Of a stretch of DNA of 32,000 nt, positions 5,267 to 31,636 are shown piece after piece. Source of the DNA: Desulfotalea psychrophila LSv54 (lineage in GTDB: Bacteria > Desulfobacterota > Desulfobulbia > Desulfobulbales > Desulfocapsaceae); the NCBI RefSeq assembly GCF_000025945.1, contig NC_006138.1, positions 30,001 through 62,000 on the forward strand, given 5' to 3'. Positions within the stretch are counted from its first letter, which is position 1, and every line of letters starts with the position of its first letter. Made by a program: the position numbers and the translations under genes. The notes beneath the pieces are model-generated. The model saw only the letters and a list, made by a program, of their open reading frames with translations. It was not told the DNA's origin and did not search any database.

Positions 5267-5267
5267 T

Positions 5268-5480
5268 AATGCTTACTCCATAAATCCAGGTACTGTTCAG
5301 CAACCTTAATATGGCTATGAGTTTGTTCTGCAAACAGCCACAACTGATACCTCATTTCGCTTATCTTATTTTTTGATCTTTATACTAATTTGTTGAACCG
5401 CTTCAGCCTCGTTCGTAAATCCAGATTCTGCCGATCAATACGTTGCGTACACAGCTCACCACAACGTGCTTTTTCTTAGG
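5268..5480 (-). pseudogene. C-terminal remnant of a DDE transposase (IS1-family-like IER-x-N-x-x-LR motif), with in-frame stops
   Basis: Own minus-strand translation gives EKARCGELCTQRIDRQNLDLRTRLKRFNKLV*RSKNKISEMRYQLWLFAEQTHSHIKV. I recall the pattern I-(E/D)-R-x-N-x-x-L-R-x-x-x-x-R-x-x-(R/K)-K...S-K from IS1-type transposase C-termini. Multiple stops upstream and no N-terminal part. Confidence 0.3.
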
Positions 5481-5550
5481 TAACTCAGCATGATACACGT
5501 CAAAATTGTCAGTGCATAAAAACACCTTATACCATCATTTCAATAGATTG

Positions 5551-5559
5551 GCATCACAC
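5551..5559. repeat. Target-site duplication, left copy (GCATCACAC)
   Basis: These 9 bp directly abut the IS terminal inverted repeat and are identical to 6655-6663. Confidence 0.85.
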
Positions 5560-6654
5560 GGCCTTGTTGCATAAATCATGAGGAAAGAAAATCATCTTCC
5601 CTCTACTCCATTCCATCTTATTAACCCGGTGGACATCCTCCTACAAAAGAACAAGATGGTATGTCCATAATTTCAGCAATTTAGCTTGGTGATTTTAAAC
5701 CTAATTGTCCGCCGGTTTAATAGTAAACAACCTCTCGAACAGGCATCCCTAAAGAATTAATTTTGTTCAAAGCCTTGATCGCAGCCCTATCTGCTGGTAC
5801 CCAGTATTCGCGGAGGCTCAATTTATCATTAATCAACTGCTTGTAGCGATACATCGCTGTTTCAGCAAGAGACCTTTGATGATACCCTGTGCTTGCTTCC
5901 CACTCTTTCAACTCACCTTTTTGCAATGCTCCTACAGCTTCATTTCTTGGATGGCCTTCCTCCCACATAGCAGCATTTTTCCGTGGTGGATGAGCAGAGA
6001 CACCTTTGACTACAATATGATAGCAATCTTGTGTTCCACACCATCGCCTGATATCTGCTCTATGCGTCGATGAAGAGGTTTCAATACCTTGGAGTCATGA
6101 ACACGCTCTAGCGAGATTTCGCCACTTAGGTGATCGATCTCGGCATCGATTGCAAGGTGAATCTTACGCCAGGTTCTACGTTTGGAGGCCCCGTGTTTTC
6201 TGACGCTCCACTCTCCTTCTCCATGGTTTAGCCCCGTCGAATCGATATGCTTAATCGGCCCATGACTTGGCAGCCTATAATTCACCTTAACAGTTTGGGC
6301 ACGTCTGCCAACAGGTTTTTCAGGTGCCTGGAGGTCGATATCCATCAGTTCAAAAAGTGAATTCAGAAAACCTTCAGCTCCTCGGAGAGACAGGCCGTAA
6401 ATGGTTCCACATCAAACAAGTCGTGTATCATCAGTGTACTTGCGGCTACGGCCACGCTGTCCCGATGGTGTCGTGCTGTACCAACTTTTAATCGCTTTCT
6501 TGTCCACCCAAAATGTCAACGCCATTGCTTCAGCGCCCCACTCCGGCCAATTTTTGATCTTTCCCCTGCTCTCTCTCATGACTCCTCCAATGCTCCATGT
6601 TACAAGAAAACATCATCGAGCAATGCTAGCAACTTCTATTTGTGCAACAAGGCC
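5560..6654 (-). mobile_element. IS5-family (IS903-group-like) insertion sequence, 1095 bp, transposase inactivated
   Basis: Terminal inverted repeats are GGCCTTGTTGCATAAAT (5560-5576) and the reverse complement of 6638-6654, GGCCTTGTTGCACAAAT (16/17 match). They resemble the IS903 end GGCTTTGTTGAATAAATC. Flanked by a perfect 9-bp direct repeat, the IS903-group duplication size. The internal ORF fragments are IS903-type transposase pieces. Confidence 0.85.
5717..6579 (-). pseudogene. IS5/IS903-type DDE transposase, disrupted by one in-frame TGA and one frameshift
   Basis: The ATG at 6579 follows GGAGGAG. The translation is MRESRGKIKNWPEWGAEAMALTFWVDKKAIKSWYSTTPSGQRGRSRKYTDDTRLV, then TGA at 6414-6412. 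The same frame continues CGTIYGLSLRGAEGFLNSLFELMDIDL...DSTGLNHGEGEWSVRKHGASKRRTWRKIHLAIDAE...ISGDG to 6010. A frame change near 6035-6050 leads to ...CYHIVVKGVSAHPPRKNAAMWEEG...GYHQRSLAETAMYRYKQLI...LGMP. The order is collinear with IS903 transposase as I remember it. Confidence 0.8.
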
Positions 6655-6663
6655 GCATCACAC
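6655..6663. repeat. Target-site duplication, right copy (GCATCACAC)
   Basis: Identical to 5551-5559. It lies 11 nt downstream of the acetyltransferase stop codon (6674-6676). Confidence 0.85.
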
Positions 6664-6673
6664 CCATAAATTA

Positions 6674-7183
6674 TTATAAATTTCTAATTTTACTTGCTGG
6701 ATTACCCACGTAGATACCTGATTCAAATATAGATTTAGCAACTACACTCCCAGCACCGATAATCACTCTATCGGTAATTGTTATACCTGGCAAAATAATA
6801 GCTCTTGCACCTATCCAACAATCATTGCCAATTTTTATTGGCGCTGTAATTATATCTTGTTCACGTAAAAGAAGCTTAGTGTCAGTATATCCATGGCCTC
6901 CAGTTAGCATCATAACTTCTGGGCCAATCATAACATCACATCCAATTTCAACCTTTTCCATACAGACTATTCTAGAATTTTCACCTATTCCTGAGTTTTC
7001 ACCAATCGTTATATTATGCCCTCTACCAAAGTACACCCCCTTAGCTATGTTCACATTCTTCCCTACATATTTAAATATGTGAGCAACAACTAAACGACGA
7101 AGAAAAACACCAAAACTAACAAATGAAACTGATGGCAGATAAATCAAGAAAGAGTAATAAAAAAACAAAAACAAGTAATTCAT
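6674..7183 (-). CDS. Hexapeptide-repeat (left-handed beta-helix) O-acetyltransferase, WcaF/maltose-acetyltransferase-like
   Basis: 169 aa. A hydrophobic N-terminus is followed by hexapeptide repeats (ITIGENSGIGENSRIV, IGNDCWIGARAIILPGITITDRVIIGAGSVV). AT-rich gene. Confidence 0.75.
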   Translation of the reverse strand: MNYLFLFFYYSFLIYLPSVSFVSFGVFLRRLVVAHIFKYVGKNVNIAKGVYFGRGHNITIGENSGIGENSRIVCMEKVEIGCDVMIGPEVMMLTGGHGYTDTKLLLREQDIITAPIKIGNDCWIGARAIILPGITITDRVIIGAGSVVAKSIFESGIYVGNPASKIRNL

Positions 7184-18435: not shown

Positions 18436-20436
18436 CTACAGCGCCACCTTAACCAAAGCCTCGTTGACCTTGACCATCTCGGCATATTCGGGCATGAGCA
18501 CCTTTAATAAATCGCGGACCCGATCGCCATCAAAGGCCCGAGCCTCCTGTCTCAGCTCCATGACAATGGCAATGGCCTCGCTGTCGGTGAGGACCTTCTC
18601 TCCGGCCAGGACCATGATCTTGTCATGGCCGGTCTCGACAATGCCCTCGCCTTCGGTGATAAGCTCTTCATAGAGTTTTTCCCCTTCACGCAGACCACTG
18701 TACTCTATTTTTATATCCTGGTCCGGCACTAAACCTGCGAGGGCGATAAGGTTACGGGCAAGATCGGCGATAAGCACCGGTTTACCCATCTTGAGGAGAA
18801 ATATCTCCCCACCTTCGCCCATGGAAGCAGCCTGAAGGATGAGCTGGGCGGCCTCTTCAATGGACATGAAGTAACGGGTAATCTTAGGGTGAGTTACCGT
18901 AACGGGTCCACCGCGCTGGATCTGGCGGGTAAAGAGGGGAATGACCGAGCCGGAAGAGCCGAGGACATTGCCAAAGCGTACCGCCATAAAGATGGTATTA
19001 TGCTCTATCGACCTATCCTTTATAATCCTCTGCCAGATCGGGGAAAGATTTCCCTGCCAGTTCCTTTTCCGGTAGGCGGACATGAGGAGCTCTGTCATCC
19101 GTTTGGAGGCACCCATGACATTGGTGGGGCGCACAGCCTTATCGGTGGAAACCACCACAAAACGTTCTACCCCGTAGACGATGGCAGCCTCCATCAGGAG
19201 TTGGCTAGAGACAATATTATTGTCCACCGCCTGCCAGGCGTTATTTTCCACCAGGGGTACATGTTTATAGGCGGCTGCATGGAAGATCACCTGAGGCTTA
19301 TGCTGCTCAAAAACATTGATCAGCAGCTTATGGTCCTGGACCTTACCGAGAACGGGCACAATATTATCCAGATCATACTCGTGCAGGAGTTCCATCTGAA
19401 TATTATAGAGGTTCTCTTCACAGGCTTCAAAGATGATGATCTTGGCCGGGGCAAAGGTAGTTACCTGACGGACAAGTTCGGAGCCAATGGAGCCACCTCC
19501 ACCGGTGATGAGGATGTTTTTCCCGGCCAGACAGGAGCCGATCTCGTCTGTTTCCAGCTTTATCTCGGCCCGGCCCAGTAGATCCCGATAGGAGATATCA
19601 CGAATATCAGAGAGATTGGCATGGCCATCAATAATTTCGCCAAAGCTGGGGATAATCTTATAGGGCAGGCCTGTTTTCTGGCAGAGAGAGGCTATCCGTT
19701 GCATCTCCTCGCCAGTCAGCGATGCGATGGCAATGAGGAGCTCCTCAGCCTTGGTCTGCTGAGCACACTCGCCCACAAAGTCCACTCCACCCCAGATGGG
19801 GATGTTGTGAATACGCAGACCCCGCTTAGAGGGATCATCATCTACAAAGCCAACGATATCATAGCAGAGCTTGCTGTTTTCTCTGATCTCCCGCACCGTC
19901 TTCTCGGCAGCACTGCCGGCCCCAACAATGAGGAGCTTTTTACAGCTGTTGAAATAGGCCCTGCGACCAGTTTTATCCACCACATGGCGCAGGATAAAAC
20001 GAATACCCACCCGGACCCCACAGACAAGGAGAAAGGTGAGGATGGCATCAAGGACCAGAACACTTCGGGAAAACTGCATGCTGGTATCGAGGAGGAAGAG
20101 GATACCGACAATAGTCAGTGAAGAGGTAAGGACGGCCTTGATGATATTAAGCAGGTCCCTAAAGCTGGTATAGCGCCACATGCCACTGTAGAGGCCAAAG
20201 GCATAAAAGATTGGCAGGCGAACGAGGAAAATAAAGGGGATAAATACCAAAAAATGAGAGACATCTCCCGGCTGTTGCTGAAAGTCAAAGCGGATAAGAT
20301 GGGCCAGGAAGTGGGCCAGGACAATAGAGAGACAATCGGCAAGGACCAGAAACCAGGCATTTCTCTGCGAGAAACGTCTCCTGAGGAGGAGGAACTGGTG
20401 ACGCAAAAAAACTGCTATGCCGAGAATCTTTTTCAT
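18436..20436 (-). CDS. Membrane-bound polysaccharide biosynthesis protein CapD/WbpM/PglF family (UDP-GlcNAc 4,6-dehydratase)
   Basis: 666 aa from the ATG at 20436 (MKKILGIAVFL...). It has 4 N-terminal TM segments, then GKNILITGGGGSIGSEL and VVSTDKAVRPTNVMGASKR. The track ORF extension back to 20577 (MFSSSSVVN...) is a translated repeat unit and was discarded. Confidence 0.9.
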   Translation of the reverse strand: MKKILGIAVFLRHQFLLLRRRFSQRNAWFLVLADCLSIVLAHFLAHLIRFDFQQQPGDVSHFLVFIPFIFLVRLPIFYAFGLYSGMWRYTSFRDLLNIIKAVLTSSLTIVGILFLLDTSMQFSRSVLVLDAILTFLLVCGVRVGIRFILRHVVDKTGRRAYFNSCKKLLIVGAGSAAEKTVREIRENSKLCYDIVGFVDDDPSKRGLRIHNIPIWGGVDFVGECAQQTKAEELLIAIASLTGEEMQRIASLCQKTGLPYKIIPSFGEIIDGHANLSDIRDISYRDLLGRAEIKLETDEIGSCLAGKNILITGGGGSIGSELVRQVTTFAPAKIIIFEACEENLYNIQMELLHEYDLDNIVPVLGKVQDHKLLINVFEQHKPQVIFHAAAYKHVPLVENNAWQAVDNNIVSSQLLMEAAIVYGVERFVVVSTDKAVRPTNVMGASKRMTELLMSAYRKRNWQGNLSPIWQRIIKDRSIEHNTIFMAVRFGNVLGSSGSVIPLFTRQIQRGGPVTVTHPKITRYFMSIEEAAQLILQAASMGEGGEIFLLKMGKPVLIADLARNLIALAGLVPDQDIKIEYSGLREGEKLYEELITEGEGIVETGHDKIMVLAGEKVLTDSEAIAIVMELRQEARAFDGDRVRDLLKVLMPEYAEMVKVNEALVKVAL

Positions 20437-21226
20437 CCGATTTTTTTCCTTTACCTGCAGAAACACAAGAATATTATTAGATAGAACCTGCACTGTTATA
20501 GGGAAGATCGTTGGGGATTGCAAGAGGAAAAAAGCAAAAAAACAACTACAGTTAACCACAGAGGAAGAAGAGAACACGGAGAAGGACTTTTTTAATTAAA
20601 CTGCTTAAATAAAAACAACACCAACCAAAGGCAGAAAGAACAGCAGCAAGCGTAGCGACGTGGCGAGGACGGCTAACCACAGAGTAGGGGAGGACACTGA
20701 TCCCTTTTAGGTAAAGGACAGGGATTAAAAGTTAACCACTGCTTAAGAGAACACAGAGAAGGACTTTTTTAATTAAACTGCTTAAATAAAAACAACACCA
20801 ACCAAAGGCAGAAAAAGACAACTACAGTTAACCACTGCTTATGAGTACACTGATCTTTTTTAGGTAAAGGACAGGGACTAAAAGTTAACCACTGCTCTGG
20901 AGTACACTGATCCCTTTTAGGTTTAAAAGACCCTTATAGTTAGGTTTTCCCATTGCATCGATTGCAAGGCCTAAACTCACAACCAATGTTCCCAAAAGAA
21001 CTAGCCTTTTAAGCTTTACGCTTTTTAAATAATTTCCTCTGCGATCTCTGTGGTTAACAGTTTTTTTCTGCTTTTCTCGCTTTTAGGTCGTGGTTTTTTA
21101 CCCAAAAATCCTCTGTGTGCTCCGTGATCTCTGTGGTTAACTTCTTTTTTCTGCTTTTTCTCGCTGTTCCTCTCGCCTTTCGCCACTTCGCTGCTATCTT
21201 TTAGGCAGTGGTTGATGCAGTTGTCT
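20437..21226. repeat. Repeat-saturated intergenic region (5 forward units, conserved core, 3 reverse units)
   Basis: GTTAACCAC-type heads lie at 20551, 20672, 20731, 20827 and 20884. The core is at 20931-21010. GTGGTTAAC-type heads lie at 21050, 21133 and 21209 (the last degenerate, GTGGTTGAT). GC-rich companion units lie at 20641-20670 and 21172-21195. Confidence 0.85.
20635..21115. repeat. Palindromic module A, copy 1 (481 bp, carries an extra 153 bp)
   Basis: 20635-20743 is identical by eye to 22197-22305. 20897-21115 is about 95% identical to 22306-22524. The extra 20744-20896 is bounded by the 13-mer GTTAACCACTGCT (20731-20743 and 20884-20896). Confidence 0.8.
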
Positions 21227-21598
21227 TTACAAAACAAGACGTCGAACGCCATCCACCAAGCGAAGCACATTAAAATTGATCAATAATCCAGTATCTACCC
21301 CAGCAAGCTTCATATAGGTCAACACCTGAGCAGTATGAAGTGGCAATAAGGTATCAACCACCTTTAGTTCAACAATGAGTTCATCTGCGACAAGAAGATC
21401 AATACGATATCCCGCATCAATTTCAATATCCTTATACCGGATGGGCAATACAACCTGAGTACGCACAAAAATATTAAGACACTGCAATTCGTACAACAAA
21501 CAGCGTTCATAACTAGATTCGAGTAAACCCGGACCAAGCTGACGATGAACTTCTATAGCACAACCAATCACTGCACCTGTCAACTCTTTAGAATCCAT
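21227..21598 (-). CDS. GxxExxY-family protein (PD-(D/E)XK nuclease-like fold, PDDEXK_3 type)
   Basis: 123 aa from the ATG at 21598, which follows GAGGA. The sequence is MDSKELTGAVIGCAIEVHRQLGPGLLESSYERCLLYEL...IDLLVADELIVELKVVDTLLPLHTAQVLTYMKLAGVDTGLLINFN. The GPGLLESSY motif is the family-defining GxxExxY, and D-x(n)-E-L-K is a PD-(D/E)XK-like core. The track extension to 21679 is translated repeat. Confidence 0.85.
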   Translation of the reverse strand: MDSKELTGAVIGCAIEVHRQLGPGLLESSYERCLLYELQCLNIFVRTQVVLPIRYKDIEIDAGYRIDLLVADELIVELKVVDTLLPLHTAQVLTYMKLAGVDTGLLINFNVLRLVDGVRRLVL

Positions 21599-21702
21599 AA
21601 CATCCTCTATATTTTTGGTCCCAATAATTAAAAACAAAGAAAATTTAACCACAAAAAGAACAGCAAGGACAAAAAGCAAAAGTTAACCACTGCTCTGGAG
21701 AA

Positions 21703-22084
21703 CACAGAGAAGGACTTTTAATTAAAAAGCAGAAAACCTTAAAAATTTTAAACTACTAAGAAAAGACCCAGCCCCTCCATCAGTAGTTCACAAAAAATAA
21801 GGACAAAAAGAAAAAGTTAACCACAGAGGAGGAGGAGAACACTGATCTCTCTTTAATTAAAAAACCTAAAGCTGGAAAAAGAAGAGAATTTACGCACCTC
21901 ACTCCAGTAACACAGGAGTGTTCATCTTTTAGCTTTTTAGCAGTCGCCATTCCACTACGCTCCACTGCTGCTGTTCAGTAGTTCAGCTTTTTAAATAATT
22001 TCCTCTGTGATCTCGGTTGCAGTGGTTAGTCGCTGTTGCTTTAGCTTTTCACCAAAAATCTCTGTGTTCTTGGTGTCAGTGGTT
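21703..22084. repeat. 382-bp direct duplication, copy 1
   Basis: It aligns base for base with 22642-23023 at a constant offset of 939. I found only 3 mismatches, all in 22009-22019. Confidence 0.9.
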
Positions 22085-22196
22085 AACTTCTTTTTTCTGC
22101 TTTTTCTCGCTGTTCCTCTCGCTTTTAGGTCGTGGTTTTTTACAAAAAAAAATCTCTATATTTTTGGTTCCAGTGATTAAAAAAAGACAATAACAA

Positions 22197-22524
22197 AAAG
22201 AACAGCAGCAAGCGTAGCGACGTGGCGAGGACGGCTAACCACAGAGTAGGGGAGGACACTGATCCCTTTTAGGTAAAGGACAGGGATTAAAAGTTAACCA
22301 CTGCTCTGGAGTACACTGATCCCTTTTAGGTAAAAAGACCCTTATAGTTAGGTTTTCCCATTGCATCGATTGCAAGGCCTAAACTCACAACCAATGTTCC
22401 CAAAAGAACTAGCCTTTTGAGCTTTACGCTTTTTAAATAATTTCCTCTGTGCTCTCTGTGGTTAACAGTTTTTTTCAGCTTTTTCTCTCGCTTTTAGGTC
22501 GTGGTTTTTTACCCAAAAATCCTC
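22197..22524. repeat. Palindromic module A, copy 2 (328 bp)
   Basis: See copy 1. The left arm has two forward units (22234, 22293). The right arm has two reverse units (22458, 22541). Read as its reverse complement, the right arm aligns unit for unit with the left arm. Confidence 0.8.
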
Positions 22525-22641
22525 TGTGTTCTCGGTTCCAGTGGTTAGTCGCTGTGGCTTTTTAAATAATTCCCTCTGTGTACTTGGTTGCAGTGATTAA
22601 GTTGAAAAACAAATACTGCTTACCACAGAGGAAGAAGAGAG

Positions 22642-23023
22642 CACAGAGAAGGACTTTTAATTAAAAAGCAGAAAACCTTAAAAATTTTAAACTACTAAGA
22701 AAAGACCCAGCCCCTCCATCAGTAGTTCACAAAAAATAAGGACAAAAAGAAAAAGTTAACCACAGAGGAGGAGGAGAACACTGATCTCTCTTTAATTAAA
22801 AAACCTAAAGCTGGAAAAAGAAGAGAATTTACGCACCTCACTCCAGTAACACAGGAGTGTTCATCTTTTAGCTTTTTAGCAGTCGCCATTCCACTACGCT
22901 CCACTGCTGCTGTTCAGTAGTTCAGCTTTTTAAATAATTTCCTCTGTGTGCTCGGTTCCAGTGGTTAGTCGCTGTTGCTTTAGCTTTTCACCAAAAATCT
23001 CTGTGTTCTTGGTGTCAGTGGTT
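22642..23023. repeat. 382-bp direct duplication, copy 2
   Basis: See 21703-22084. Confidence 0.9.
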
Positions 23024-23096
23024 GGCGTCCTCACCACTCCGCCCTGCTCCGCTGCCGCCACTTCGCTACGCTTGCTGCTGCTTTTTAAATAATTTC

Positions 23097-23123
23097 CTCT
23101 GTGCTCTCTGTGCTCTCTGTGGT
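23097..23123. repeat. 9-nt tandem repeat, 3 units (CTCTGTGCT CTCTGTGCT CTCTGTGGT)
   Basis: Read directly from the sequence. It lies 16 nt from the stop codon of the 355-aa Wzz paralogue. The paralogous site at 25011-25046 has 4 units. Confidence 0.9.
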
Positions 23124-23138
23124 TGATGTGAGATTTTA

Positions 23139-24206
23139 TTACATTGCTTCTTTACGGCGCTGAAGGGCGGTGCGGAGAAGGGCGAGGACAATGGCCAGGA
23201 AGCCGGCAAAGAGGAGTGTGGCGGCAAGAATGAGGGCCTTTTTTGGTTTTATCTTTTCCCCCTCACCCAGAGGATGGGACAGGTACTGGAATCCTTTGAG
23301 ACCGGCAAGATCAGGACTAAAATTCTGCAGCTGTTGCAGACTCGACTGTAGTTGCGTCAAGCCATAGGCCAACCCAGCAGTAGCGGGCATAGAGGCTACT
23401 CCCGCATCCTGCCCCTTGCCAGCAGTTGAGTCCTTCATCGGCCCTACCTGATTCTGCAACTGGATCAAGCTTATCTGGTTTTCCACACTATCCCTATAGC
23501 CCTTGAGAATAATTTGCTGTCCCCCACTTACCTCTGTCACAACACGCTCGTTAACAAATTGCAAAAAGCCTTCAAGCTCACGGGCCAATTTCTCATCACC
23601 ACCACCCCTTAGGCTAATGCCGAGCACGGTGGGATTGGTAATGGATTGATTTTTCTTACCCTGAGGAGCCAAGACCGTAACGGAGAGAGCCCCTTTGAAT
23701 CTGCCTAATTCAGCCTGCAGGCCCTGCTCTGCGGAAAAGGTCTTACCTGTTTTTTTCTGGTAGGCCAACCACATATCACGGGATTTCAGGAGCTGATAGA
23801 CACGGTTAAAACGGTGCTGGGCTAAGAGAGGGTTACTGCCAACAGAGGGCGTGCGCAGAACAAAGGGAAGCTCCATATTGCCATCTTCACCAATCATTTC
23901 AGAGGGAACATTCTCTAGATTTTCCAATGTATCAATCTGCTGATAGAGGGCTGGCAAGAGGGGAGAGGAGACTGCTGAAGGAATCTCTATCTCGGCCGTC
24001 ACCTCATAGGTGGATGGCAGAGCGAGAAGAAGCACAAGGGCGAGGGCACCTATGACAGATACGGCTCCACCAATAAACCAGCGCTGCTGCCAGACATCGA
24101 CAAGCAGGGAGAGGAGGTCGATCTCATCGTCTCGATAATTACTTACCGACAGGGGACACAGGTTAGGTGCTTGGATACTTGAACCTACAGGCCTAGCTTC
24201 ACTCAT
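23139..24206 (-). CDS. wzz: Wzz-type polysaccharide co-polymerase (PCP-1, O-antigen chain-length determinant), paralogue a, 355 aa
   Basis: The start ATG at 24206 lies 5 nt after GGGGAGGA. The N-terminal DDEIDLLSLLVDVWQQRWFIGGAVSVIGALALVLLLAL gives the Wzz N-terminal motif plus TM1. The C-terminal KPKKALILAATLLFAGFLAIVLALLRTALQRR gives the KP-x-x-x-LI motif plus TM2. Confidence 0.8.
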   Translation of the reverse strand: MSEARPVGSSIQAPNLCPLSVSNYRDDEIDLLSLLVDVWQQRWFIGGAVSVIGALALVLLLALPSTYEVTAEIEIPSAVSSPLLPALYQQIDTLENLENVPSEMIGEDGNMELPFVLRTPSVGSNPLLAQHRFNRVYQLLKSRDMWLAYQKKTGKTFSAEQGLQAELGRFKGALSVTVLAPQGKKNQSITNPTVLGISLRGGGDEKLARELEGFLQFVNERVVTEVSGGQQIILKGYRDSVENQISLIQLQNQVGPMKDSTAGKGQDAGVASMPATAGLAYGLTQLQSSLQQLQNFSPDLAGLKGFQYLSHPLGEGEKIKPKKALILAATLLFAGFLAIVLALLRTALQRRKEAM

Positions 24207-25061
24207 TAAAATCCTCCCCAAGAAGTTCCGTACAGAAAAATAGCTTATCTCTTATGTGTATATCATTAACAGGGTGGAATACAAGAGAAAAAAAGACAAA
24301 GAACAGTTAACCACTGCTTAGGAGAACACTGATCTTTTTTAGGATAAAAGACAGGTACTAGATGCTAGCAGTGGAGCACCGCGGAATGGCGGATACTAGA
24401 AAAAGCTGACAAACAGCAGCGAGTAGCAGTGAGTGATAACGAGTGGCGTCAGCAGCGTAGCGGCGAACGAGTGGCGAGCGGAATGGCGAAAAAAGTTAAC
24501 CAGTGCTCAGGAGAACACTGATCTTTTTTAGGTAAAGGACAGGGACTAAAAGTTAACCACTGCTCTGGAGTACACTGATCCCTTTTAGGTAAAAAAAACC
24601 TTATAGTTAGGTTTTCCCATTGCATCGGTTGTAAGGCCTAAACTCACAACCAATGCTCCTAAACAAGTTAGGCTTTTGAGCTTTAGGCTTTTAAAATAAA
24701 TTTCCTCTGTGTCCTCGGTTCCAGTGGTTAACTGCTTTTCTCTTTTTTTTAATCTTTCAAGCAGTGGTAGTGGCAGTTTACAAAAAAAACCTCTGTGTTC
24801 TCATAAGCAGTGGTCAACTTCTTTTTTCTGCTTTTTCTCGCTGTTATTCTCGCTTTTAGGCAGTCGCCACTCCACTCTGCTTCGCTGCTGCTGTGGCAGT
24901 TTACCAAAAAACCTCTGTGAACTCGGTTCCAGTGGTTGGCGTCCTCACCACTCCGCCCTGCTCCGCTGCCGCCACTTCGCTACGCTTGCTGCTGCTTTTT
25001 AAATAATTTCCTCTGTGCTCTCTGTGCTCTCTGTGCTCTCTGTGGTTGATGTGAGATTTTA
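24207..25061. repeat. Repeat-saturated intergenic region including module A copy 3 (about 24495-24732)
   Basis: F heads lie at 24306, 24495 and 24552. A GC-rich companion array lies at 24367-24489. The core is at 24599-24680. R heads lie at 24724, 24810, 24932 and 25042. Confidence 0.85.
25011..25046. repeat. 9-nt tandem repeat, 4 units (CTCTGTGCT x3 + CTCTGTGGT)
   Basis: Read directly from the sequence. It lies 16 nt from the stop codon of the 434-aa Wzz paralogue. Confidence 0.9.
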
Positions 25062-26366
25062 TTACATTGATTCTCTTCGGCGCTGGAGGGCGGTGCGGAG
25101 AAGGGCCAGGGCAACAGCAAGAAAGCAGGAGAGTAAAACTGTGGTGGCAAGGATGAGAGCTTTTTTCGGCTTTATCTTATGCCCACTTCCCGTCGCGGCA
25201 GAATAAACCTGAAGAGCATGAACTCCCTGCAGATCATCGGTGTAAGCATCCAACTGTTGCAGGCGAGAGAGAAGTCCTGGTAGTTCAGCGATATAGGCAT
25301 CATCATCCTTACGAGCCCTGAGCCCGTTAAGCTCACTACTTCCCAGTAAGAGCTCTCTCTTTTCTAGAAGGGGTTGCAGTTGCTGTGCATAAAGTTTTTT
25401 ATCGGAGATCTCTCTTAAAATCTGTATACGCTTCGCCAACACCTCGGTACCCAACAAATATACAGGCATAGCGGTTTGATCAGTTACCATTACCTTGAGA
25501 TTAGAAACATTTCTTTCAGAAATATTATCCATGGAGGTGGGCAACTTTATGCCAAGAGACTCTGCTATAGCATAATTTTCCTGCAAGCGAGTCAAACGAA
25601 CAGCACGGGATCGTAGCACCGAGGCCTTGAGGGCTGAAATTTCCATATCAACCTGTTCAAGATCCTTTTTTTGCTGAGCCAATAGACGGGTAATTCGATT
25701 CCCGCGGTCAACTGAGGCAGCATGGCGCAACAGTCCAATCTTATTATTTATTTCTTTACCCGCTTTCTGAATAACCACCTCCATCTCTTGCTCCACATAG
25801 GCAGCAGCCTTTTTATCCACAAAGAGAACAAATCCCGTCAGTCGCTGTTCTACACTCGTATTATCTCCTCCTCCCCGATAAGAGATGCGCAGCACCGAGG
25901 GATCTGAGACAGCTTTTCCCTTGATAGGTTTTGGGGCCTGAACCTGCACAGAAAGACCAACAAACTCCCCCTGCAATCCCTGAAGTTCTTCATCGGTAAA
26001 CGCCCCCTCCCTATTCCCTTGACGAAAAGTGACCCAACTATCAAAGGATTTTAAGTACTGGGAGACGATGCCAAAACGGTATGATCTAGTCAGCAAGTCC
26101 TGACCTGTAGCCACAGGCACAACCAGGGCAACACTATCGGCTTGACCTATATCCATTCTGGCCTGATAGGTCGATGGAAGGACGAGTAGCACCAGAAAAG
26201 CCACCAAGGTTACGGCCAGAACAATCTTCATAAGAAATTTTCGCTGATCCCAGATATCATGCAACAAACCGAGAAGATCTATTTCATCATTTTGAAAATA
26301 AGGCGATTGTTCTTTATCTCTTCCTCGAAATTCTCTGGCCAATAGCGCTGTCTTATCTTCTTGCAT
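25062..26366 (-). CDS. wzz: Wzz-type polysaccharide co-polymerase, paralogue b, 434 aa
   Basis: The start ATG at 26366 lies 7 nt after AGGAAGG. It has NDEIDLLGLLHDIWDQRKFLMKIVLAVTLVAFLVLLVL and a C-terminal KPKKALILATTVLLSCFLAVALALLRTALQRRR. The central region is collinear with paralogue a but carries about 80 extra heptad-like, Q/L/E/R-rich residues. Confidence 0.8.
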   Translation of the reverse strand: MQEDKTALLAREFRGRDKEQSPYFQNDEIDLLGLLHDIWDQRKFLMKIVLAVTLVAFLVLLVLPSTYQARMDIGQADSVALVVPVATGQDLLTRSYRFGIVSQYLKSFDSWVTFRQGNREGAFTDEELQGLQGEFVGLSVQVQAPKPIKGKAVSDPSVLRISYRGGGDNTSVEQRLTGFVLFVDKKAAAYVEQEMEVVIQKAGKEINNKIGLLRHAASVDRGNRITRLLAQQKKDLEQVDMEISALKASVLRSRAVRLTRLQENYAIAESLGIKLPTSMDNISERNVSNLKVMVTDQTAMPVYLLGTEVLAKRIQILREISDKKLYAQQLQPLLEKRELLLGSSELNGLRARKDDDAYIAELPGLLSRLQQLDAYTDDLQGVHALQVYSAATGSGHKIKPKKALILATTVLLSCFLAVALALLRTALQRRRESM

Positions 26367-26844
26367 AAAATACCTTCCTTGCATGGTAATAACTCATAAG
26401 AACTACAAAATAAAAAGACAACTACAGTTAACCACTGCCTTGAGGACACGGAGAAAGACTTTTTAGGTAAACTGCTTAAAAACAGAAATAAAACCTTGAA
26501 CTTTAAAATCTTTTTATCTTTAAGTTTCTTACTCCGCTTTCCTGCTGCTTTTTAAATAATTTCCTCTGTGTTCTTCAGCCAGTGGTTAATCCATTCGATT
26601 TTCTCGCTATTTCTCTCGCCTTTCGCCACTTCGCTACTACCTTTTAGGTAGTGGCTTTTTACCAAAAAATCTCTGTGTGCTTGGTTGCAGTGGTTAGCCC
26701 TTTCCTGCTGTTATATTTTCTCGCTGTTGTCGTTGCTGTTGTAGTTACTTTTCGCTTTTCGCTTTTTAAATAATTTCCTCTGTGTACCTGGTGTCAGTGG
26801 TTAACCTTTTTGGGGCAGGCACTGCGGAAAGAGAAGAGCAGGAG
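26367..26844. repeat. Repeat-saturated intergenic region
   Basis: An F head lies at 26427. R heads lie at 26582, 26690 and 26797. CTTTTTAAATAATTTCC tails lie at 26548 and 26762. A companion unit lies at 26616-26639. Confidence 0.8.
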
Positions 26845-26874
26845 GCCCCTTCCCCTGTTGAGAGGGGAAGGGGC
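26845..26874 (-). terminator. GC-rich perfect hairpin immediately downstream of the 514-aa Wzz-like gene (candidate terminator or RNA stabiliser; no U-tract)
   Basis: CCCCTTCCCCT (26846-26856) pairs perfectly with AGGGGAAGGGG (26863-26873) across a 6-nt loop. It lies 12 nt from the stop at 26886. The following sequence on the minus strand is CCTCCTGCTCTTC, not a T-run. Confidence 0.4.
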
Positions 26875-26885
26875 TGAGGCAAGGC

Positions 26886-28430
26886 CTATTTAAAGCTTTG
26901 CCCTCTTCTTCTCAGGGCAGAAAAGAGAAGGGCGGCGATAAAAATCATACCTAGTGCCAACATGCCAAAGGCTACCTCCAGTAGAATTATTTTTTTCGCT
27001 TCGTAAACCCCGGCCTGCCTCTTCTGGACTGGCCCGACAATGGTATACATCGTCTGGGATGGCTTGAGGTAGAGTTGACAAACTTCTTTATAGATAGTGC
27101 TTACTCCCTCAACTACTGCGACAAGATTCTCCTGTATTTGTAAAATATCTCCATTAACAATGGCAAATTTTTCATCTGCACTCAGGCGCTTGGCCAGGTC
27201 ATTCTCCGGAGTATTCTTCATATTCTGATAAAAACTGATATCAGACTCTACCCCGGCAAGATCAGTTCCCTCGGCAATAATACGCTTCATCAAGCCCTGA
27301 CGAAACTGTGCTTCGGCACTTTCGTTGGTCAACTTCACCAGGCGATCCAAAAAGGCATCGCCAATTTGCGGGATCATACTCCCCCCACTAGCAGACAGAC
27401 TTGAATTGCCACCAGCTCCAGAGCGAGAACTTCTGGTTGCCCTATTTTGGATATAGGCCTCCATGGCGTCCTCAACAACCCTTATACGTTTTTCAATTTC
27501 AACTCTTTTCCGATTAAGGGCATCCAACCGATAATCAATATAGAGGAGGGCCTGGTTTTTTTCCTTGAAGACCCCAAGTCCCCAAATTTTTGCAAAGAGA
27601 TTTTTAAAGGCAAACAGCTGAATATCTTTTATCTCACTCTGCAAATCGGCAATCGTTCCACGGTCGCCACGCAACAAATCAGCCCCCGGGAGTGCCTCTA
27701 CCCCCTTGGCGAATCCTTCAACCCTCTGCAGCACCAAGCGGTAGCGATCGGCGATGATCATAAACTCACTCTCCGACATATCCCGTAAAATCGCACTAGA
27801 AGAGATTATTGGAATAGAGTATTGAAAAATCCCCTTACTCTCCTTCGAATAATTGGCCCACCCCTCCAATAATTGGGTCAGAACAATCTCTGCAATATCA
27901 TAGGGAATGGCATCGCCAGCCATCCTCAGGAAATAGGGCGCCGAGGCCATTAAAGACCGCTTATCGGCAAGATACTCCTTATGCAAAACACCCCACTGCT
28001 CCGAGGACATTTTTTTAGAGGCTGTTGCTGCTAAAAATCGTTGTTCTAAAATGAGCATGCCCCTACTATCCTTAAGTACAGTAAGAGAGGCCTGAAAATC
28101 TTTAAAGCTGAGATATTCAGCAAGTTGTTTTTCTTCATAAACGGCCCGAAGAATAGGCGTTTCCAGCAGGTCTCTCACCTTAAAGCTCATGCCATTGGGA
28201 TACTCCCCGCTAGCCGCCCCGGCAAAACTAAAATGAACAGGCAGATCAACCACGCGCATCTCTTTTTTACTGAGCAAAAAGGCTGCCGAGGAGGCCATGA
28301 GGAAAAAGAGACAGGCAATAGCAATGGTGATCCATCTGCGACAGGACCATAAGTCCCTAAATATGGTAGTTAAATCTATACAATCATCATCTGCATGCCG
28401 CACAACATCAAGGGCTTTGGACTGGTCCAT
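26886..28430 (-). CDS. PCP/Wzz-like membrane protein, paralogue c, 514 aa (divergent)
   Basis: The start ATG at 28430 lies 8 nt after GGAG (MDQSKALDVV...). DDCIDLTTIFRDLWSCRRWITIAIACLFFLMASSAAFLL gives a Wzz-like N-terminal motif plus TM1. A long helical middle region follows, then the C-terminal TM ILLEVAFGMLALGMIFIAALLFSALRRR. The track extension to 28550 (..FFSVFSSSSVVN..) is translated repeat. Confidence 0.6.
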   Translation of the reverse strand: MDQSKALDVVRHADDDCIDLTTIFRDLWSCRRWITIAIACLFFLMASSAAFLLSKKEMRVVDLPVHFSFAGAASGEYPNGMSFKVRDLLETPILRAVYEEKQLAEYLSFKDFQASLTVLKDSRGMLILEQRFLAATASKKMSSEQWGVLHKEYLADKRSLMASAPYFLRMAGDAIPYDIAEIVLTQLLEGWANYSKESKGIFQYSIPIISSSAILRDMSESEFMIIADRYRLVLQRVEGFAKGVEALPGADLLRGDRGTIADLQSEIKDIQLFAFKNLFAKIWGLGVFKEKNQALLYIDYRLDALNRKRVEIEKRIRVVEDAMEAYIQNRATRSSRSGAGGNSSLSASGGSMIPQIGDAFLDRLVKLTNESAEAQFRQGLMKRIIAEGTDLAGVESDISFYQNMKNTPENDLAKRLSADEKFAIVNGDILQIQENLVAVVEGVSTIYKEVCQLYLKPSQTMYTIVGPVQKRQAGVYEAKKIILLEVAFGMLALGMIFIAALLFSALRRRGQSFK

Positions 28431-28900
28431 AACAAAACTCCATATTAAAAAACAAAAAAAACTACGGTTAACCACAGAGGAAGAGGAGAACACAGAGAAA
28501 AACATTTTATGTAAACTGCTTAAAACAAAAAGACAAGAACTATTAATCACTGGTGGAGAACACTGATTTCATTTTATGTAAACTGCAGAAAAGACAGATA
28601 CTAGATACGACAGATATAAGATACTAGATGCGAGAAAGAGCAGAAAAAGCGAAGGACAGTTAACCACTGCTTAAGAGCACACTGATTTCAGTTTAGGCAA
28701 AGGACGAAAATCTAACAGCAACCAAGGGCACGGCAAAACATCTCTGGCAACAAATCGTTAAAACTAGAGCTATCTAGCAGTTATCTTTTTACCAAAAAAT
28801 CTCTGTGTACTCTGTGAACTCTGTGGTTAACTTTTTTCTGTCTCTCTGTTCTTGATTGCCAGTGGTTAACTTTTTTTTACATTTGGCAAGGAATTGTTTA
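28431..28900. repeat. Repeat-rich divergent intergenic region between the Wzz-like gene c and nfo
   Basis: F heads lie at 28467, 28542 (degenerate) and 28659. GATACTAGAT-type short repeats lie at about 28597-28630. R heads lie at 28823 and 28862. Confidence 0.8.
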
Positions 28901-28937
28901 AAGTGGGTTTTGGGAATAATTACCAACAAGCTGTCCT

Positions 28938-28943
28938 TATAAT
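28938..28943 (+). promoter_or_regulatory. Possible -10 hexamer (TATAAT) for nfo
   Basis: A perfect TATAAT lies 24 nt upstream of the nfo ATG. No convincing -35 is present at 17-bp spacing, so this is weak. Confidence 0.25.
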
Positions 28944-28966
28944 AAAATAGCCACAAGAGGAAGAGG

Positions 28967-29845
28967 ATGAAATATATCGGTGCCCATGTGAGTGCGGCGG
29001 GAGGGGTTGAAAATGCTCCGAAAAATGCGGTTGCAATAGGGGCCAATGCCTTTGCCCTTTTCACCAAGAACCAACGACAATGGAAGGCCAAGCCCTTAAC
29101 GGAGGAGAGTATTGCCGCCTTTAAAGAGAATTTGACAGAGGCCGGGATAGAGGCCAGACATGTCCTCCCCCATGACTCCTATCTGATCAACCTGGGGCAT
29201 CCCGAGGCCGAGGCTCTGGAAAAATCACGGGGAGCATTTATGGACGAGCTGGGGCGATGCGCCCAGCTTGGACTACCCCTGCTCAACTTCCATCCCGGCA
29301 GTCACCTAAAAAAAATTGATCCGGAGGCCTGTCTGGATCGTATTGCCGAGAGCATTAATCTGGCCCATGGGTCGGTGGCAGATGTGATAACCGTTATTGA
29401 AAACACGGCGGGCCAAGGAACTAATCTGGGCTATCGCTTTGAGCATCTGGCCAGGATAATAGCGGCTGTTGAGGATAAGTCGCGGGTGGGAGTCTGCATT
29501 GATACCTGCCACGCCTTCGCCGCCGGCTATGACCTGCGCACTGTAGAGGCATGCGAGAAGAGCTGGGCTGAATTTGACCGGATCGTGGGCTTTAAATATC
29601 TGCGGGGCATGCATCTCAATGATGCCAAGAGTGAATTTTTCAGTCGGGTTGACCGGCACCAGAGTTTGGGGGCGGGAAATATTGGCTGGGAGGCATTTCG
29701 CTATATTATGAAGGATGATCGTTTTGATGATATCCCTCTCATCCTTGAAACTGTGGACACTAGCCTCTGGCAGGAAGAAATTAAAAAACTACAGCAGTGG
29801 AGCGTAGTGGAATGGCGAGAACTAGAAAAAACAAAGACAAGTTAA
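28967..29845 (+). CDS. nfo: Endonuclease IV (AP endonuclease)
   Basis: 292 aa. [13 protein letters not shown]...[13 protein letters not shown]...LLNFHPGSH...[44 protein letters not shown]...[29 protein letters not shown] is collinear with E. coli Nfo. The last ~12 codons and the stop lie inside repeat units. Confidence 0.95.
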
Positions 29846-30060
29846 CCACAGAGGAAGAGGAGTACACAGAGAAAAACTCTTTAATTAAAAAACAAAAAAC
29901 CTTAAAGATTAAACAATTAGGAAAAGAAAAATGTTCCCCTCCATCAGTAGCTCACCCAAAGCCCTCTGTGTTCTTCAGCCAGTGGTTAACGCTGTTCGTC
30001 TTTAAGCAGTTAGCAGTTCACCAAAAAACCTCTGTGTTCTCTGTGGTGATGTAGTTGTCT
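29841..30060. repeat. 150-bp forward/reverse unit pair (29841-29990) plus one more reverse unit
   Basis: The left end reads GTTAACCACAGAGGAAGAGGAGTACACAGAG. The reverse complement of the right end reads GTTAACCACTGGCTGAAGAACACAGAGGGC. A degenerate R head lies at 30043 (GTGGTGATG). Confidence 0.8.
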
Positions 30061-30428
30061 TTACAAAACAAGACGTCGAACGCCATCCACCAAGCGAAGC
30101 ACATTAAAATTGATCAATAATCCAGTATGTACCCCAGCAAGCTTCATATAGGTCAACACCTGAGCAGTATGAAGTGGCAACAATGCTTCCACCACCTTCA
30201 GTTCAATAATGAGCTCATCAACGACAAGAAGATCAATACGATATCCCGCATCAATCTCAATTCCCTTATAGCGAAGAGGTAACATAACCTGAGTACGCAC
30301 AGCATGAGACCTTACAACTCATACAGCAAACAACGTTCATAGCTTGATTCAAGCAAACCAGGACCAAGCTCACGATCAACTTCTATAGCACAACCAATCA
30401 CTACGCCTGTCAACTCTTTGGCATCCAT
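30061..30428 (-). pseudogene. GxxExxY-family gene, inactivated (in-frame TAA at codon 39 plus a 4-nt deletion)
   Basis: The ATG at 30428 opens MDAKELTGVVIGCAIEVDRELGPGLLESSYERCLLYEL, followed by TAA (30314-30312). Relative to the intact copy, 24 nt are replaced by 20 nt, which shifts the frame. The downstream ORF 30061-30300 encodes the C-terminal two thirds. Confidence 0.85.
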
Positions 30429-30672
30429 AGCATCCTCTGTGTTCTTGGTCTCAATAATTAAAAACAAAGATAAGAACAGAAAAAACTACAGTTAACCACA
30501 GAGAAAAGGAGTTCACAGAGAAGAGCATTATAGATAAACTGCTTAAAGACAAAAAACAAAGATCAACTACTATAGTAGTTATCAATGTCCCCAAAAGAAC
30601 TAGGTATTTAATCTTTATTTTTACTACTTTTAAATAATTTCCTCTGTGTCCTCTTCTTCCTCTGTGGTTAAC
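30429..30672. repeat. Repeat-rich intergenic region between the GxxExxY pseudogene and ddl
   Basis: A degenerate R-like unit lies at 30431-30460. An F head lies at 30491. A 16-bp perfect palindrome lies at 30565-30580. The unit CTTTTAAATAATTTCCTCTGTGTCCTCTTCTTCCTCTGTGGTTAAC spans 30627-30672. Confidence 0.8.
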
Positions 30673-31636
30673 CCTTTTTGCCCTTGCTTTTCTCTAATCC
30701 AAGCTCGATGAGGGTATCAAGGAGGGAGGGGAAGTCCATGCCGGTGGCGGCGGCTTCCTGAGGGAGGATGCTGGTTTCGGTCATGCCGGGGATGGTGTTG
30801 GTTTCGAGCAGGTAGAGCTTACCGTCTTCACCGTAGATGAAGTCTGTGCGAGAGTAGCCGCGCAGCCGCAGGGCTTGGTGGGCACGAATGGCATGATCCT
30901 GCACCTGCTCACGAAGGGCATCGGCAATGAGGGCGGGACAGATCTCCTCGGAGGCACCGGGTTGGTATTTTGCCTCATAGTCAAAGAAGGCATATTTATC
31001 ACCGGGAACAATTTCCAGTACCGGTAGGGCCTGTAGATCGTCGTTACCGAGGACTGCACAGGTAAGCTCCCGGCCCTTGATAAATTGCTCCACCATGATG
31101 GCCCCGGCACTACAGTCTCGGGCATGGTTTATCCCGGCCAGCAACTCTTCTTCTGTATGGGCCAGAGAGATACCAATACTGGAACCTGCACAGGCAGGTT
31201 TGACCACCAAAGGCAGACCGAGATCCTCGATAAGTTCCTCTGAATAAAAGAAATCCCCTGCGGCAATGGTATGCCAATCAGCCACGGGAAGTTCAGCGTT
31301 ATAATAGAACTCCTTGGCCAGGTCCTTATCCATGGCCAGGGCACTGCCCAATACCCCGGAACCTTGGTAGGGAATGCCGAGCAGGTCGAGAAAGCCCTGG
31401 ATTGTACCGTCTTCACCATGCAGACCATGGAGGAGAATAAAGGCAAAGTCGATGGAGGCGGCATCGGCGGCAAGTCGGGGCAGATCGGTGGCCGAATCAT
31501 AGCGCGAGACCAGATACTTCTCTTTATCGAGGATCCTCTCGACACCGTCGGCCCCGGTCAAAGAGACCTCTCTCTCACCGGAGGTTCCACCAGCTATCAG
31601 GGCTATACGTAATCTTTCTGCTCTTTGTTCTTGCAT
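30668..31636 (-). CDS. ddl: D-alanine--D-alanine ligase
   Basis: 322 aa. IALIAGGTSGEREVS, HGLHGEDGTIQGFLDLLGIPYQGSGVLGSALAMDK and the C-terminal LLETNTIPGMTETS are Ddl/ATP-grasp signatures. Confidence 0.93.
   Translation of the reverse strand: MQEQRAERLRIALIAGGTSGEREVSLTGADGVERILDKEKYLVSRYDSATDLPRLAADAASIDFAFILLHGLHGEDGTIQGFLDLLGIPYQGSGVLGSALAMDKDLAKEFYYNAELPVADWHTIAAGDFFYSEELIEDLGLPLVVKPACAGSSIGISLAHTEEELLAGINHARDCSAGAIMVEQFIKGRELTCAVLGNDDLQALPVLEIVPGDKYAFFDYEAKYQPGASEEICPALIADALREQVQDHAIRAHQALRLRGYSRTDFIYGEDGKLYLLETNTIPGMTETSILPQEAAATGMDFPSLLDTLIELGLEKSKGKKG

Follow-up and report, generated by a model that had tools for sequence, protein, structure and literature searches.

Palindromic repeat modules between the wbpM-like gene and ddl of Desulfotalea psychrophila, probably derived from the arms of GxxExxY elements

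The stretch analysed here (the window) comprises 32,000 nucleotides of Desulfotalea psychrophila LSv54 (contig NC_006138.1, positions 30,001 to 62,000 of the forward strand; all coordinates below are those of the window). A wbpM-like gene is the first gene of a long minus-strand polysaccharide cluster, and beyond it the gene order is GxxExxY, two Wzz-family genes (wzz a and wzz b), a 514-aa membrane protein, nfo, a GxxExxY pseudogene and ddl. In this region every gene appears as an island between inverted repeat units whose GTTAAC heads face it. A preliminary description of the sequence took this for an orientation rule, and proposed either a cassette array with occupied and empty slots or elements that insert at gene boundaries. 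The question is therefore what these repeats are and why they seem to point at genes. We find that the rule is a geometric by-product of palindromic modules, and the modules themselves, which resemble repetitive extragenic palindromic (REP) sequences and miniature inverted-repeat transposable elements (MITEs), are in our judgement probably derived from the arms of an element that carries the GxxExxY gene, the gene and its arms together forming a small selfish unit.

With up to two mismatches allowed, there are 19 matches to GTTAACCACAGAG in the window, where 0.59 would be expected. A looser search for heads over the whole window gave about 50 units, all intergenic and all within 20551-30672, with no unit in 1-20500 or past 30672; the field starts 115 nt upstream of the start of the wbpM-like gene. 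The units end in ..TAACCAC (the GTTAAC heads), and these termini lie at the outer ends of modules. Each intergenic gap (IG) from wbpM to ddl is made of one to three modules of 190-770 bp with the order F..F-core-R..R and the heads outermost, where the left arm has one to five units on the + strand (F), the core is non-coding and the right arm has one to four units on the - strand (R). All F units stand ahead of all R units inside every module (8 intergenic regions). Three modules are found in IG2 (FFF-RRR / FF-RRR / FF-RRR), and the modules are as follows.

20551-21216: module IG1 (FFFFF-RRR), F heads at 20551, 20672, 20731, 20827 and 20884, core, R heads at 21058, 21141 and 21216; holds module-A copy 1
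21644-22181: module B copy 1, F F F, core, R R R; right boundary immediately after ..CAGTGGTT
22194-22601: module A copy 2, F F, core, R R R; gene-less head-to-head junctions on both sides; right boundary immediately after ..GTGGTTA
22618-23127: module B copy 2; terminal head (CACAGAGAG)x3, 11 nt away from the wzz a stop codon
24306-25050: module IG3 (FFF-RRRR), F F F, core, R R R R; module-A copy 3; (CACAGAGAG)x4 head; left boundary immediately before AGTTAACC
26427-26805: module IG4 (F-RRR), F, core, R R R
28467-28870: module IG5 (FFF-RR), F F F, core, R R; the 514-aa gene and nfo start divergently on either side
29841-30046: module IG6 (F-RR), F, core, R R
30491-30672: module IG7 (F-R), the simplest hairpin, F-core-R

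Each kind of unit has its own tail, ACACTGATC..TTTTAGG for F and TTTAAATAATTTCCTCTGTG for R (8 of 8 on the + strand in both cases), and the two arms are separate subfamilies that pair imperfectly. Four modules were folded, and in each of them the outermost heads are paired together (z = -3.3 for IG4, -1.6 for IG5, -2.7 for IG6 and -6.35 for IG7), the weakest value belonging to a 421-nt module and the strongest to the simple module of 194 nt; the fold of IG7 has -64.5 kcal/mol. Also, an A-run lies outside the left heads and a T-run outside the right heads. The palindromic architecture and the hairpin potential given in the preliminary description are thus present. All the head positions that it listed could be located, some of them degenerate (ATCAAC at 21208, 23119 and 25042, TTTAAC at 21644, CATCAC at 30043), as could its two gene-less head-to-head junctions (22181/22234 and 22601/22618), and the likeness that it saw between 22150-22180 and 21603-21632 is real. 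No Rfam 15 family matches anywhere in the window at the gathering score, nor at E<=1 over 20400-30800. Module IG1 has no match among the plasmids of PLSDB, and D. psychrophila plasmids contributed no extra copies.

The orientation rule survives as a description of position but not as a rule about genes. Since each gap holds one to three complete heads-out modules, a head must lie on either side of every gene, and as the arrangement GTTAAC..CACAGAG / CTCTGTG..GTTAAC is symmetric, this holds for a gene on either strand. One chromosomal polarity is common to all modules, including those beside the + strand gene nfo; the rule is therefore not one "on each gene's own sense strand", and module polarity is independent of the gene strand. 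It may be noted that the 15 observations of a head facing a gene are not independent of one another, as all of them follow from the presence of complete F..R modules in each gap. The rule is a geometric by-product of palindromic modules, and a striking orientation rule can be just that. If two degenerate units at 21603-21632 and 30434-30470 are counted, it fails at both GxxExxY starts, where the tails face the gene, and in the homologous arrays of Pseudoalteromonas it fails at three of four gene flanks and holds at one.

These two degenerate units draw attention to the gene that they precede, which is present in the window as one intact copy and one pseudogene.

21227-21598, - strand: intact GxxExxY (PDDEXK_3) gene, 123 aa (TIGR04256 140.9 bits, cut-off 35; PF13366 141.9 bits, cut-off 22)
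21603-21632, - strand: degenerate unit, 5' arm of GxxExxY, tail toward the start codon; within the 88% duplicated block 21208-21643
30050-30430, - strand: GxxExxY pseudogene (tblastn 30425-30315 and 30300-30064, two frames, 89-90% identity; 5 stop codons)
30434-30470, - strand: degenerate unit, 5' arm of the pseudogene, tail toward the former start codon; within the duplicated block 30043-30473

The product is a predicted nuclease-like protein. Residues G24, E27, Y30, D67, E77 and K79 are invariant in 48 GxxExxY homologues, and the D..ExK catalytic residues are kept. The AlphaFold model (mean predicted local distance difference test score, pLDDT, of 92) has a PD-(D/E)XK-like fold whose best Foldseek matches are weak (E ~0.01: Cas4, lambda exonuclease and tRNA-splicing endonuclease). 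No sequence match to GxxExxY exists among the solved structures of the PDB, and no relative was confirmed among the viral contigs of IMG/VR. In a 2012 survey of PD-(D/E)XK nucleases the function of PDDEXK_3 is given as "Unknown", with multiple transfers between divisions (PMC3424549). The cores of the modules contain no GxxExxY remnants (tblastn, E<=50), the gene and the pseudogene being the sole matches.

The connection between this gene and the repeats becomes clear only outside D. psychrophila. Scanning a genome collection with the pattern GTTAACCACWG-N8-13-ACACWGA gave at least 120 loci, from Acidobacteriota, Planctomycetota, Verrucomicrobiota, Chloroflexota, Bacteroidota, Cyanobacteria, Pseudomonadota and others. 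Among the matches listed, 91 of 120 seeds are full three-heptad arrays of the form GTTAACCACAGAG-R-CACAGAG-R-ACACAGAG, and the listed loci hold 270 three-heptad arrays where 8.4 are expected, so these are not chance matches. In the consensus of the family, about three CACRRAG heptads with a period of 8-10 nt come after a terminal T(T/C)A(A/C)CCAC. Partner arms, which lie outside the selection by the pattern, end in CTCTGTGGT(T/G)A, so the conservation of the terminus does not stem from the search pattern. A hidden Markov model of the wider-family units matches 14 units of the window (best E-values 4e-6 and 2e-4), and judged by sequence the window units are local variants of this cross-phylum inverted-repeat family. 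The heptad varies by lineage (CACAGAG, CACGAAG, CACGGAG, CGCAGAG, CACAAAG, CACAGAT and others), and within one element it is identical across both arms, that is, the change is concerted. A search of the literature, with subscription literature outside it, returned no description of the units and no link between PDDEXK_3 and repeats, and the family is apparently undescribed.

Like the window units, the arrays of other genomes avoid long open reading frames (ORFs), 38% of them lying inside ORFs against an ORF coverage of 86%. Adjacent units in the listed loci form 62 F-R pairs with heads outward and 31 R-F pairs with heads inward, the latter being common in Pyrinomonadaceae. Many genomes contain scattered gene-less hairpins of the family, with several to each metagenome-assembled genome (MAG). 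But if we consider the F-R gaps of 397-484 nt among the listed loci, each one encloses a GxxExxY gene, with no exceptions. With a generic heptad detector the F-R gaps are bimodal, 1-230 nt or about 370-460 nt, and the larger class holds GxxExxY and no other family. We also looked from the side of the gene, by sampling 80 metagenomic GxxExxY loci, of which 76 genes were tested for inverted repeats and 74 had 100 nt or more on each side. When the 120 nt before the gene were compared with the 120 nt after it, 48 of 76 genes showed a strong inverted repeat, and 0 of 76 did so after shuffling. Upstream of the start (n = 74) the nearest array is F in 41 cases, R in 9 and absent in 24; downstream of the stop (n = 74) 51 genes have R as the nearest array, 4 have F and 19 have none, with a background density of 0.05 arrays per 100 nt. 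The F arm lies at a median of 22 nt before the start and the R arm 10 nt after the stop. From this polar arrangement the canonical unit is head-heptads-ORF-heptads-head with the tails facing the gene, which is the opposite of the head-facing rule of the preliminary description.

Several individual loci may be mentioned for their layout. In a Verrucomicrobiales MAG (L105, ~2400-3200) 13 units of strictly alternating orientation and 44-49-nt spacing stand beside a GxxExxY gene, and in a Bacteroidales MAG (L116) five units follow one another as direct repeats, separated by about 85 nt. Three related metagenome contigs (L130, L131 and L138) have the GxxExxY element at one site, between the end of a histidine-kinase gene and the start of a response-regulator gene, and L135 and L141 share another locus in which the heptad spacers differ; such contigs could serve to trace how the element was gained and how its arms evolved.

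The nearest relatives of the window's own GxxExxY (60-72% identical) belong to marine Gammaproteobacteria, and here gene and modules are seen together again. Pseudoalteromonas strains carry one same GxxExxY protein (P0272), whose gene lies just upstream of a wbpM-like gene and points the same way, as in the window, and is embedded in arrays of ~135-bp F-R modules that number from 1 to about 7 per side depending on the strain; one strain has a second copy of the gene. The WbpM proteins of D. psychrophila and Pseudoalteromonas are only 38% identical, so the shared neighbourhood is not a recent joint transfer. A GxxExxY homologue from TARA is likewise surrounded by units. The junction region of Pseudoalteromonas collects several repeat kinds: in one locus (L208) a (CTAGGT-like) repeat at 1910-2100 follows the DegT gene beside the module arrays, and (TAGCTCC)x9 at ~4560-4625 lies upstream of the wbpM-like gene.

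Returning to the window, the modules bear clear traces of copying. There are 16 internal duplications of 90 nt or longer, every one of them direct. Module B is repeated with 99% identity (21698-22084 and 22637-23023) and module A with 94% (20843-21139 and 22252-22547), copy 2 of the latter being also 94-95% identical to 20632-20757; the third copy of module A (24494-24857 against 20826-21180) is 82% identical. The GxxExxY block is duplicated with 88% identity (21208-21643 and 30043-30473), and the 3' ends of wzz a and wzz b share their downstream flank (22969-23261 and 24882-25184, 84%). Four block boundaries fall on unit termini to the base, immediately after ..CAGTGGTT and ..GTGGTTA and immediately before AGTTAACC and GTGGT. 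The heads therefore behave as the ends of copied segments. The heads beside the stop codons of the two wzz genes hold the nonamer CACAGAGAG three times (wzz a, 23097-23121) and four times (wzz b, 25011-25044), which looks like a slippage-type change of copy number inside the head. The unit numbers of the two arms are also unequal, e.g. 5 F against 3 R, and together with the differing nonamer counts this points to tandem amplification as well.

It could then be asked if any element is needed at all. The pattern may be no more than what segmental duplication and slippage have left behind locally, in a polysaccharide locus prone to recombination, with one ancestral element copied in place and no element biology. 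The direct duplications, all within 10 kb, agree with this, as do the unequal arms, the nonamer counts and the shared 3' flank of wzz a and wzz b, which are tandem paralogues (28% identical). Also, the nearest relatives by ddl, Desulfotalea MAGs (Ddl 68-70% identical at the amino acid level), keep the FAD-oxidase/ddl pair with fdhD downstream and have no units beside ddl, these genomes being too distant for breakpoint analysis. But local duplication does not account for modules that also flank the unrelated genes nfo and ddl and replace their stop codons, nor for four block boundaries that coincide with heads, the independent recurrence of the same architecture in Pseudoalteromonas, or the gene-less hairpins of the family dispersed elsewhere. 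We therefore consider it an unlikely explanation of the whole.

The stop codons just mentioned deserve description. That of nfo is the TAA inside the head 29841-29846, and the last 13 aa of the protein are repeat-derived, lying beyond the family model (homologues are 279-286 aa long). That of ddl is the TAA inside the head 30667-30672, which gives Ddl a 7-aa C-terminal extension, KSKGKKG, after ..LIELGLE, the end in relatives. As both genes end in a TAA of a head with extensions that homologues lack, repeat sequence has replaced the native stop codons. The idea that elements insert at gene boundaries is thus retained in modified form, with the boundary position and the stop codons within heads speaking for it, whereas its cassette variant is not. 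Synteny with the Desulfotalea MAGs ends at the end of ddl, where the first unit begins. No units occur at three contexts of nfo homologues (L121-L123), which are gammaproteobacterial-like and non-syntenic loci.

In the cassette variant, genes would have been captured between heads by a site-specific recombinase in the manner of an integron. Like an attC array, the region has single genes of unrelated function separated by imperfect palindromes with a GTT..AAC-like core, and two of its head-to-head junctions are empty; synteny with relatives breaks at the ddl head, and acquisition is suggested by the closest homologues of nfo and GxxExxY, which are gammaproteobacterial. The heads come within one base of each attC box consensus, but by the same token they miss it, AGTTAAC and GTTAACT each departing from RYYYAAC / GTTRRRY at one position. 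Family scans of the window ORFs found no integrase or other recombinase. The modules are multi-unit palindromes of 190-770 bp with several heads per side, against 57-141 bp for attC, the empty junctions are merely two adjacent modules, and the boundary of the array includes the essential housekeeping gene ddl. Moreover, in the wider family the gene that is truly bracketed lies inside the F..R palindrome and not between R and F, it is GxxExxY only, and its flanking tails are gene-ward; the head-facing rule fails in Pseudoalteromonas too. An integron/attC reading was rejected for want of an integrase, for the length of the modules and for the unmatched box consensus, and a cassette array of any kind is in our view largely refuted and highly improbable.

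The closest homologues just referred to are, for GxxExxY (21227-21598), in Pseudoalteromonas, Colwellia and Oleispira (60-72% identity) and, for nfo, in marine Gammaproteobacteria (79% identity), in neither case in Desulfobulbales. Both genes look horizontally acquired on the strength of these similarities.

A different proposal is that the modules act in RNA, the hairpins processing, stabilising or terminating transcripts gene by gene and the arms of GxxExxY forming an insulating mRNA stem. A long predicted stem follows every gene within 0-20 nt, and the A-run to the left and T-run to the right of the heads resemble a bidirectional terminator. Complementarity of the arms is kept across lineages despite the changes of heptad, and the last heptad of the unit 21603-21632 supplies a Shine-Dalgarno-like AGAGGA 7 nt ahead of the GxxExxY ATG. 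There are known systems with such stems: the intervening sequences of 23S rRNA hold a small four-helix-bundle "S23p" ORF of unknown function inside an inverted-repeat stem, and the early mRNA of phage T7 has RNase III processing stems between consecutive genes. Here, however, the context is not rRNA, and the arm mismatches show no bias to G.U on the sense strand (55 of G.U type against 62 of A.C type, p = 0.58), that is, no signal of selection at the RNA level. Also, the primary sequence of heptad and terminus is conserved across phyla far beyond the needs of a stem, the F and R arms are imperfectly pairing subfamilies, the module between divergent starts (28467-28870) has no obvious terminator or processing role, the number of modules ranges from 1 to about 7 among Pseudoalteromonas strains, and no Rfam family matches. 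A role in RNA is therefore improbable as the reason for the modules.

We favour, with moderate confidence, the reading in which the modules are REP/MITE-like palindromes derived from the arms of GxxExxY elements. Under it, GxxExxY and its arms would make up a small selfish unit, from which the gene-less modules would descend as non-autonomous or decayed forms. The modules would multiply by the copying of whole blocks that end at heads, while arm units and heptads would also multiply by tandem amplification, and they would survive at sites where the damage is slight, namely in the spacers between genes, where they adjoin stop codons or just replace them. For the nuclease, the proposed activity would be recognition or cleavage of the heptad arrays or of the hairpin. 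The movement of modules, the selfish unit, the standing of gene-less modules as derivatives or targets and the action of the nuclease on the arrays are what we infer from these patterns taken together.

Several results weigh against this explanation. About one third of the GxxExxY genes have no arms, and in Colwellia polaris and relatives (L214-L216, 4001-4375) the gene lies between rmlA and rmlC with no heptad arms. In D. psychrophila itself the canonical 3' R arm is missing at both GxxExxY copies, and the map of units is that of the 32-kb window. The duplications in the window are all direct ones within this locus, and much of the pattern could thus be explained by plain segmental duplication. 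The outer flanks of 52 arm pairs gave no target-site duplication, the apparent TTAA/TCA..TGA being part of the inverted repeat, and no pair of filled and empty sites was found; the case for mobility is therefore drawn only from copy number, block identity and strain variation. As a separate observation, the rmlA-rmlC site in Colwellia is that of a normally contiguous dTDP-rhamnose operon.

In its logic the proposed GxxExxY system would be most nearly analogous to REPIN-RAYT (REP doublets forming hairpins, with REP-associated tyrosine transposases) and to bacterial interspersed mosaic elements (BIMEs). Like REP/BIME and REPIN-RAYT of Enterobacteria and Pseudomonas, it has short extragenic repeats that form inverted hairpin pairs and, between genes, mosaic arrays; it has a small gene of single-domain nuclease type that is flanked by the repeats in inverted orientation; and its repeat varies by lineage in concert. 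The extragenic high copy number typical of REP and BIME is seen in the roughly 50 intergenic units per 10 kb and in the ORF avoidance of the wider family, and the inverted doublet of REPINs in the F..R order of every module, the pairing heads and the excess of F-R over R-F pairs. The differences are as plain. The partner is a PD-(D/E)XK (PDDEXK_3) protein, whereas in REPIN-RAYT it is a Y1 HUH transposase, and no Y1_Tnp match exists among the window ORFs. The arm consists of about three heptads with a TAACCAC/TCACCAC terminus, where REPs are GTAG-headed palindromes, and a GTAG head is not found. The scheme of terminus and heptads is common to several phyla, and GxxExxY genes occur in many copies, as against one RAYT gene per repeat family.

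Correia elements of Neisseria (CREE, Correia repeat enclosed elements, or NEMIS, Neisseria miniature insertion sequences) and other MITEs offer a second comparison. They too are non-coding sequences of 100-400 bp with terminal inverted repeats that form long hairpins in transcripts, and they too sit at gene boundaries, sometimes altering the 3' ends of genes. The Correia terminus TATAGTGGATTAAC seems to resemble ..CTCTGTGGTTAAC. The modules, 190-770 bp long and with cores free of GxxExxY remnants, lie within the range of MITEs (~50-800 bp, non-coding, with terminal inverted repeats). But they show no target-site duplication, their arms are tandem arrays of units, and a coding partner, GxxExxY, shares these arms. 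A parent insertion sequence (IS) with the same terminal repeats was not found in the window, where the sole trace of a transposase is a DDE_Tnp_1 fragment at 6010-6345, far from the units.

The remaining genes of the window are listed here.

1-18.4 kb, minus strand: densely packed polysaccharide cluster (glycosyltransferases, Wzx-type flippase, AsnB-like, DegT, RmlA, dehydratases, TviB)
18436-20436, - strand: wbpM/pglF-like dehydratase gene (NCBIfam PseB/FnlA and sugar-transferase-like matches; in-frame ATG at 20434-20436)
23139-24221, - strand: Wzz-family gene a, wzz a (Pfam Wzz 33.8 bits, cut-off 25.5)
25062-26384, - strand: Wzz-family gene b, wzz b (Pfam Wzz 34.4 bits, cut-off 25.5)
26886-28430, - strand: 514-aa membrane protein ("wzz c"), polysaccharide co-polymerase (PCP)-like topology only
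28967-29845, + strand: nfo, endonuclease IV, the sole + strand gene of the region (NF002199 503.6 bits over residues 1-279)
30668-31636, - strand: ddl (NF002378 327 bits)

The label "wzz c" in the preliminary description gave the 514-aa protein a Wzz identity that has no family support, since family scans found no Pfam or NCBIfam match, Wzz included. It resembles wzz a and wzz b weakly (E = 0.001-0.016) and at the termini only, in an N-terminal IDL..LW motif and a C-terminal membrane segment, and may be a very divergent co-polymerase or something else. Within the polysaccharide cluster, the DDE_Tnp_1 fragment is a truncated IS4/IS5-type transposase of 111 aa at 6010-6345 (and 5267-6680), and segments near it (7-9 kb and 11-13 kb) have a very low G+C of 0.30-0.36, which suggests an IS remnant and a mosaic origin of the cluster. 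The organisation had also been called undescribed for a chain-length-regulator locus. The first half of this agrees with our finding no published or Rfam description of the units, but the link to chain length looks incidental, since the recurrent neighbours of the units are GxxExxY and polysaccharide genes such as wbpM.

A wider formulation is that GxxExxY with its heptad-array inverted repeats represents a new class of minimal selfish DNA element across most bacterial phyla, the gene-less hairpins being non-autonomous progeny or target sites. In it a PD-(D/E)XK nuclease of about 125 aa would take the role that the HUH transposase has for REPINs, or that of a homing endonuclease for its site, and in D. 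psychrophila and Pseudoalteromonas such elements would build fast-changing module arrays at the edges of polysaccharide clusters. We put this forward tentatively, as a possibility that we would at present rather doubt than accept. PDDEXK_3/GxxExxY is a large, heavily transferred and uncharacterised family, and the conserved polar pair of repeats gives it a concrete candidate substrate. As gene-less hairpins these repeats are also found from Acidobacteriota to Gammaproteobacteria, and this suggests a system like REPIN/RAYT but with another nuclease fold; the strain-variable arrays beside wbpM-like genes could be hotspots of recombination or of variation in expression.

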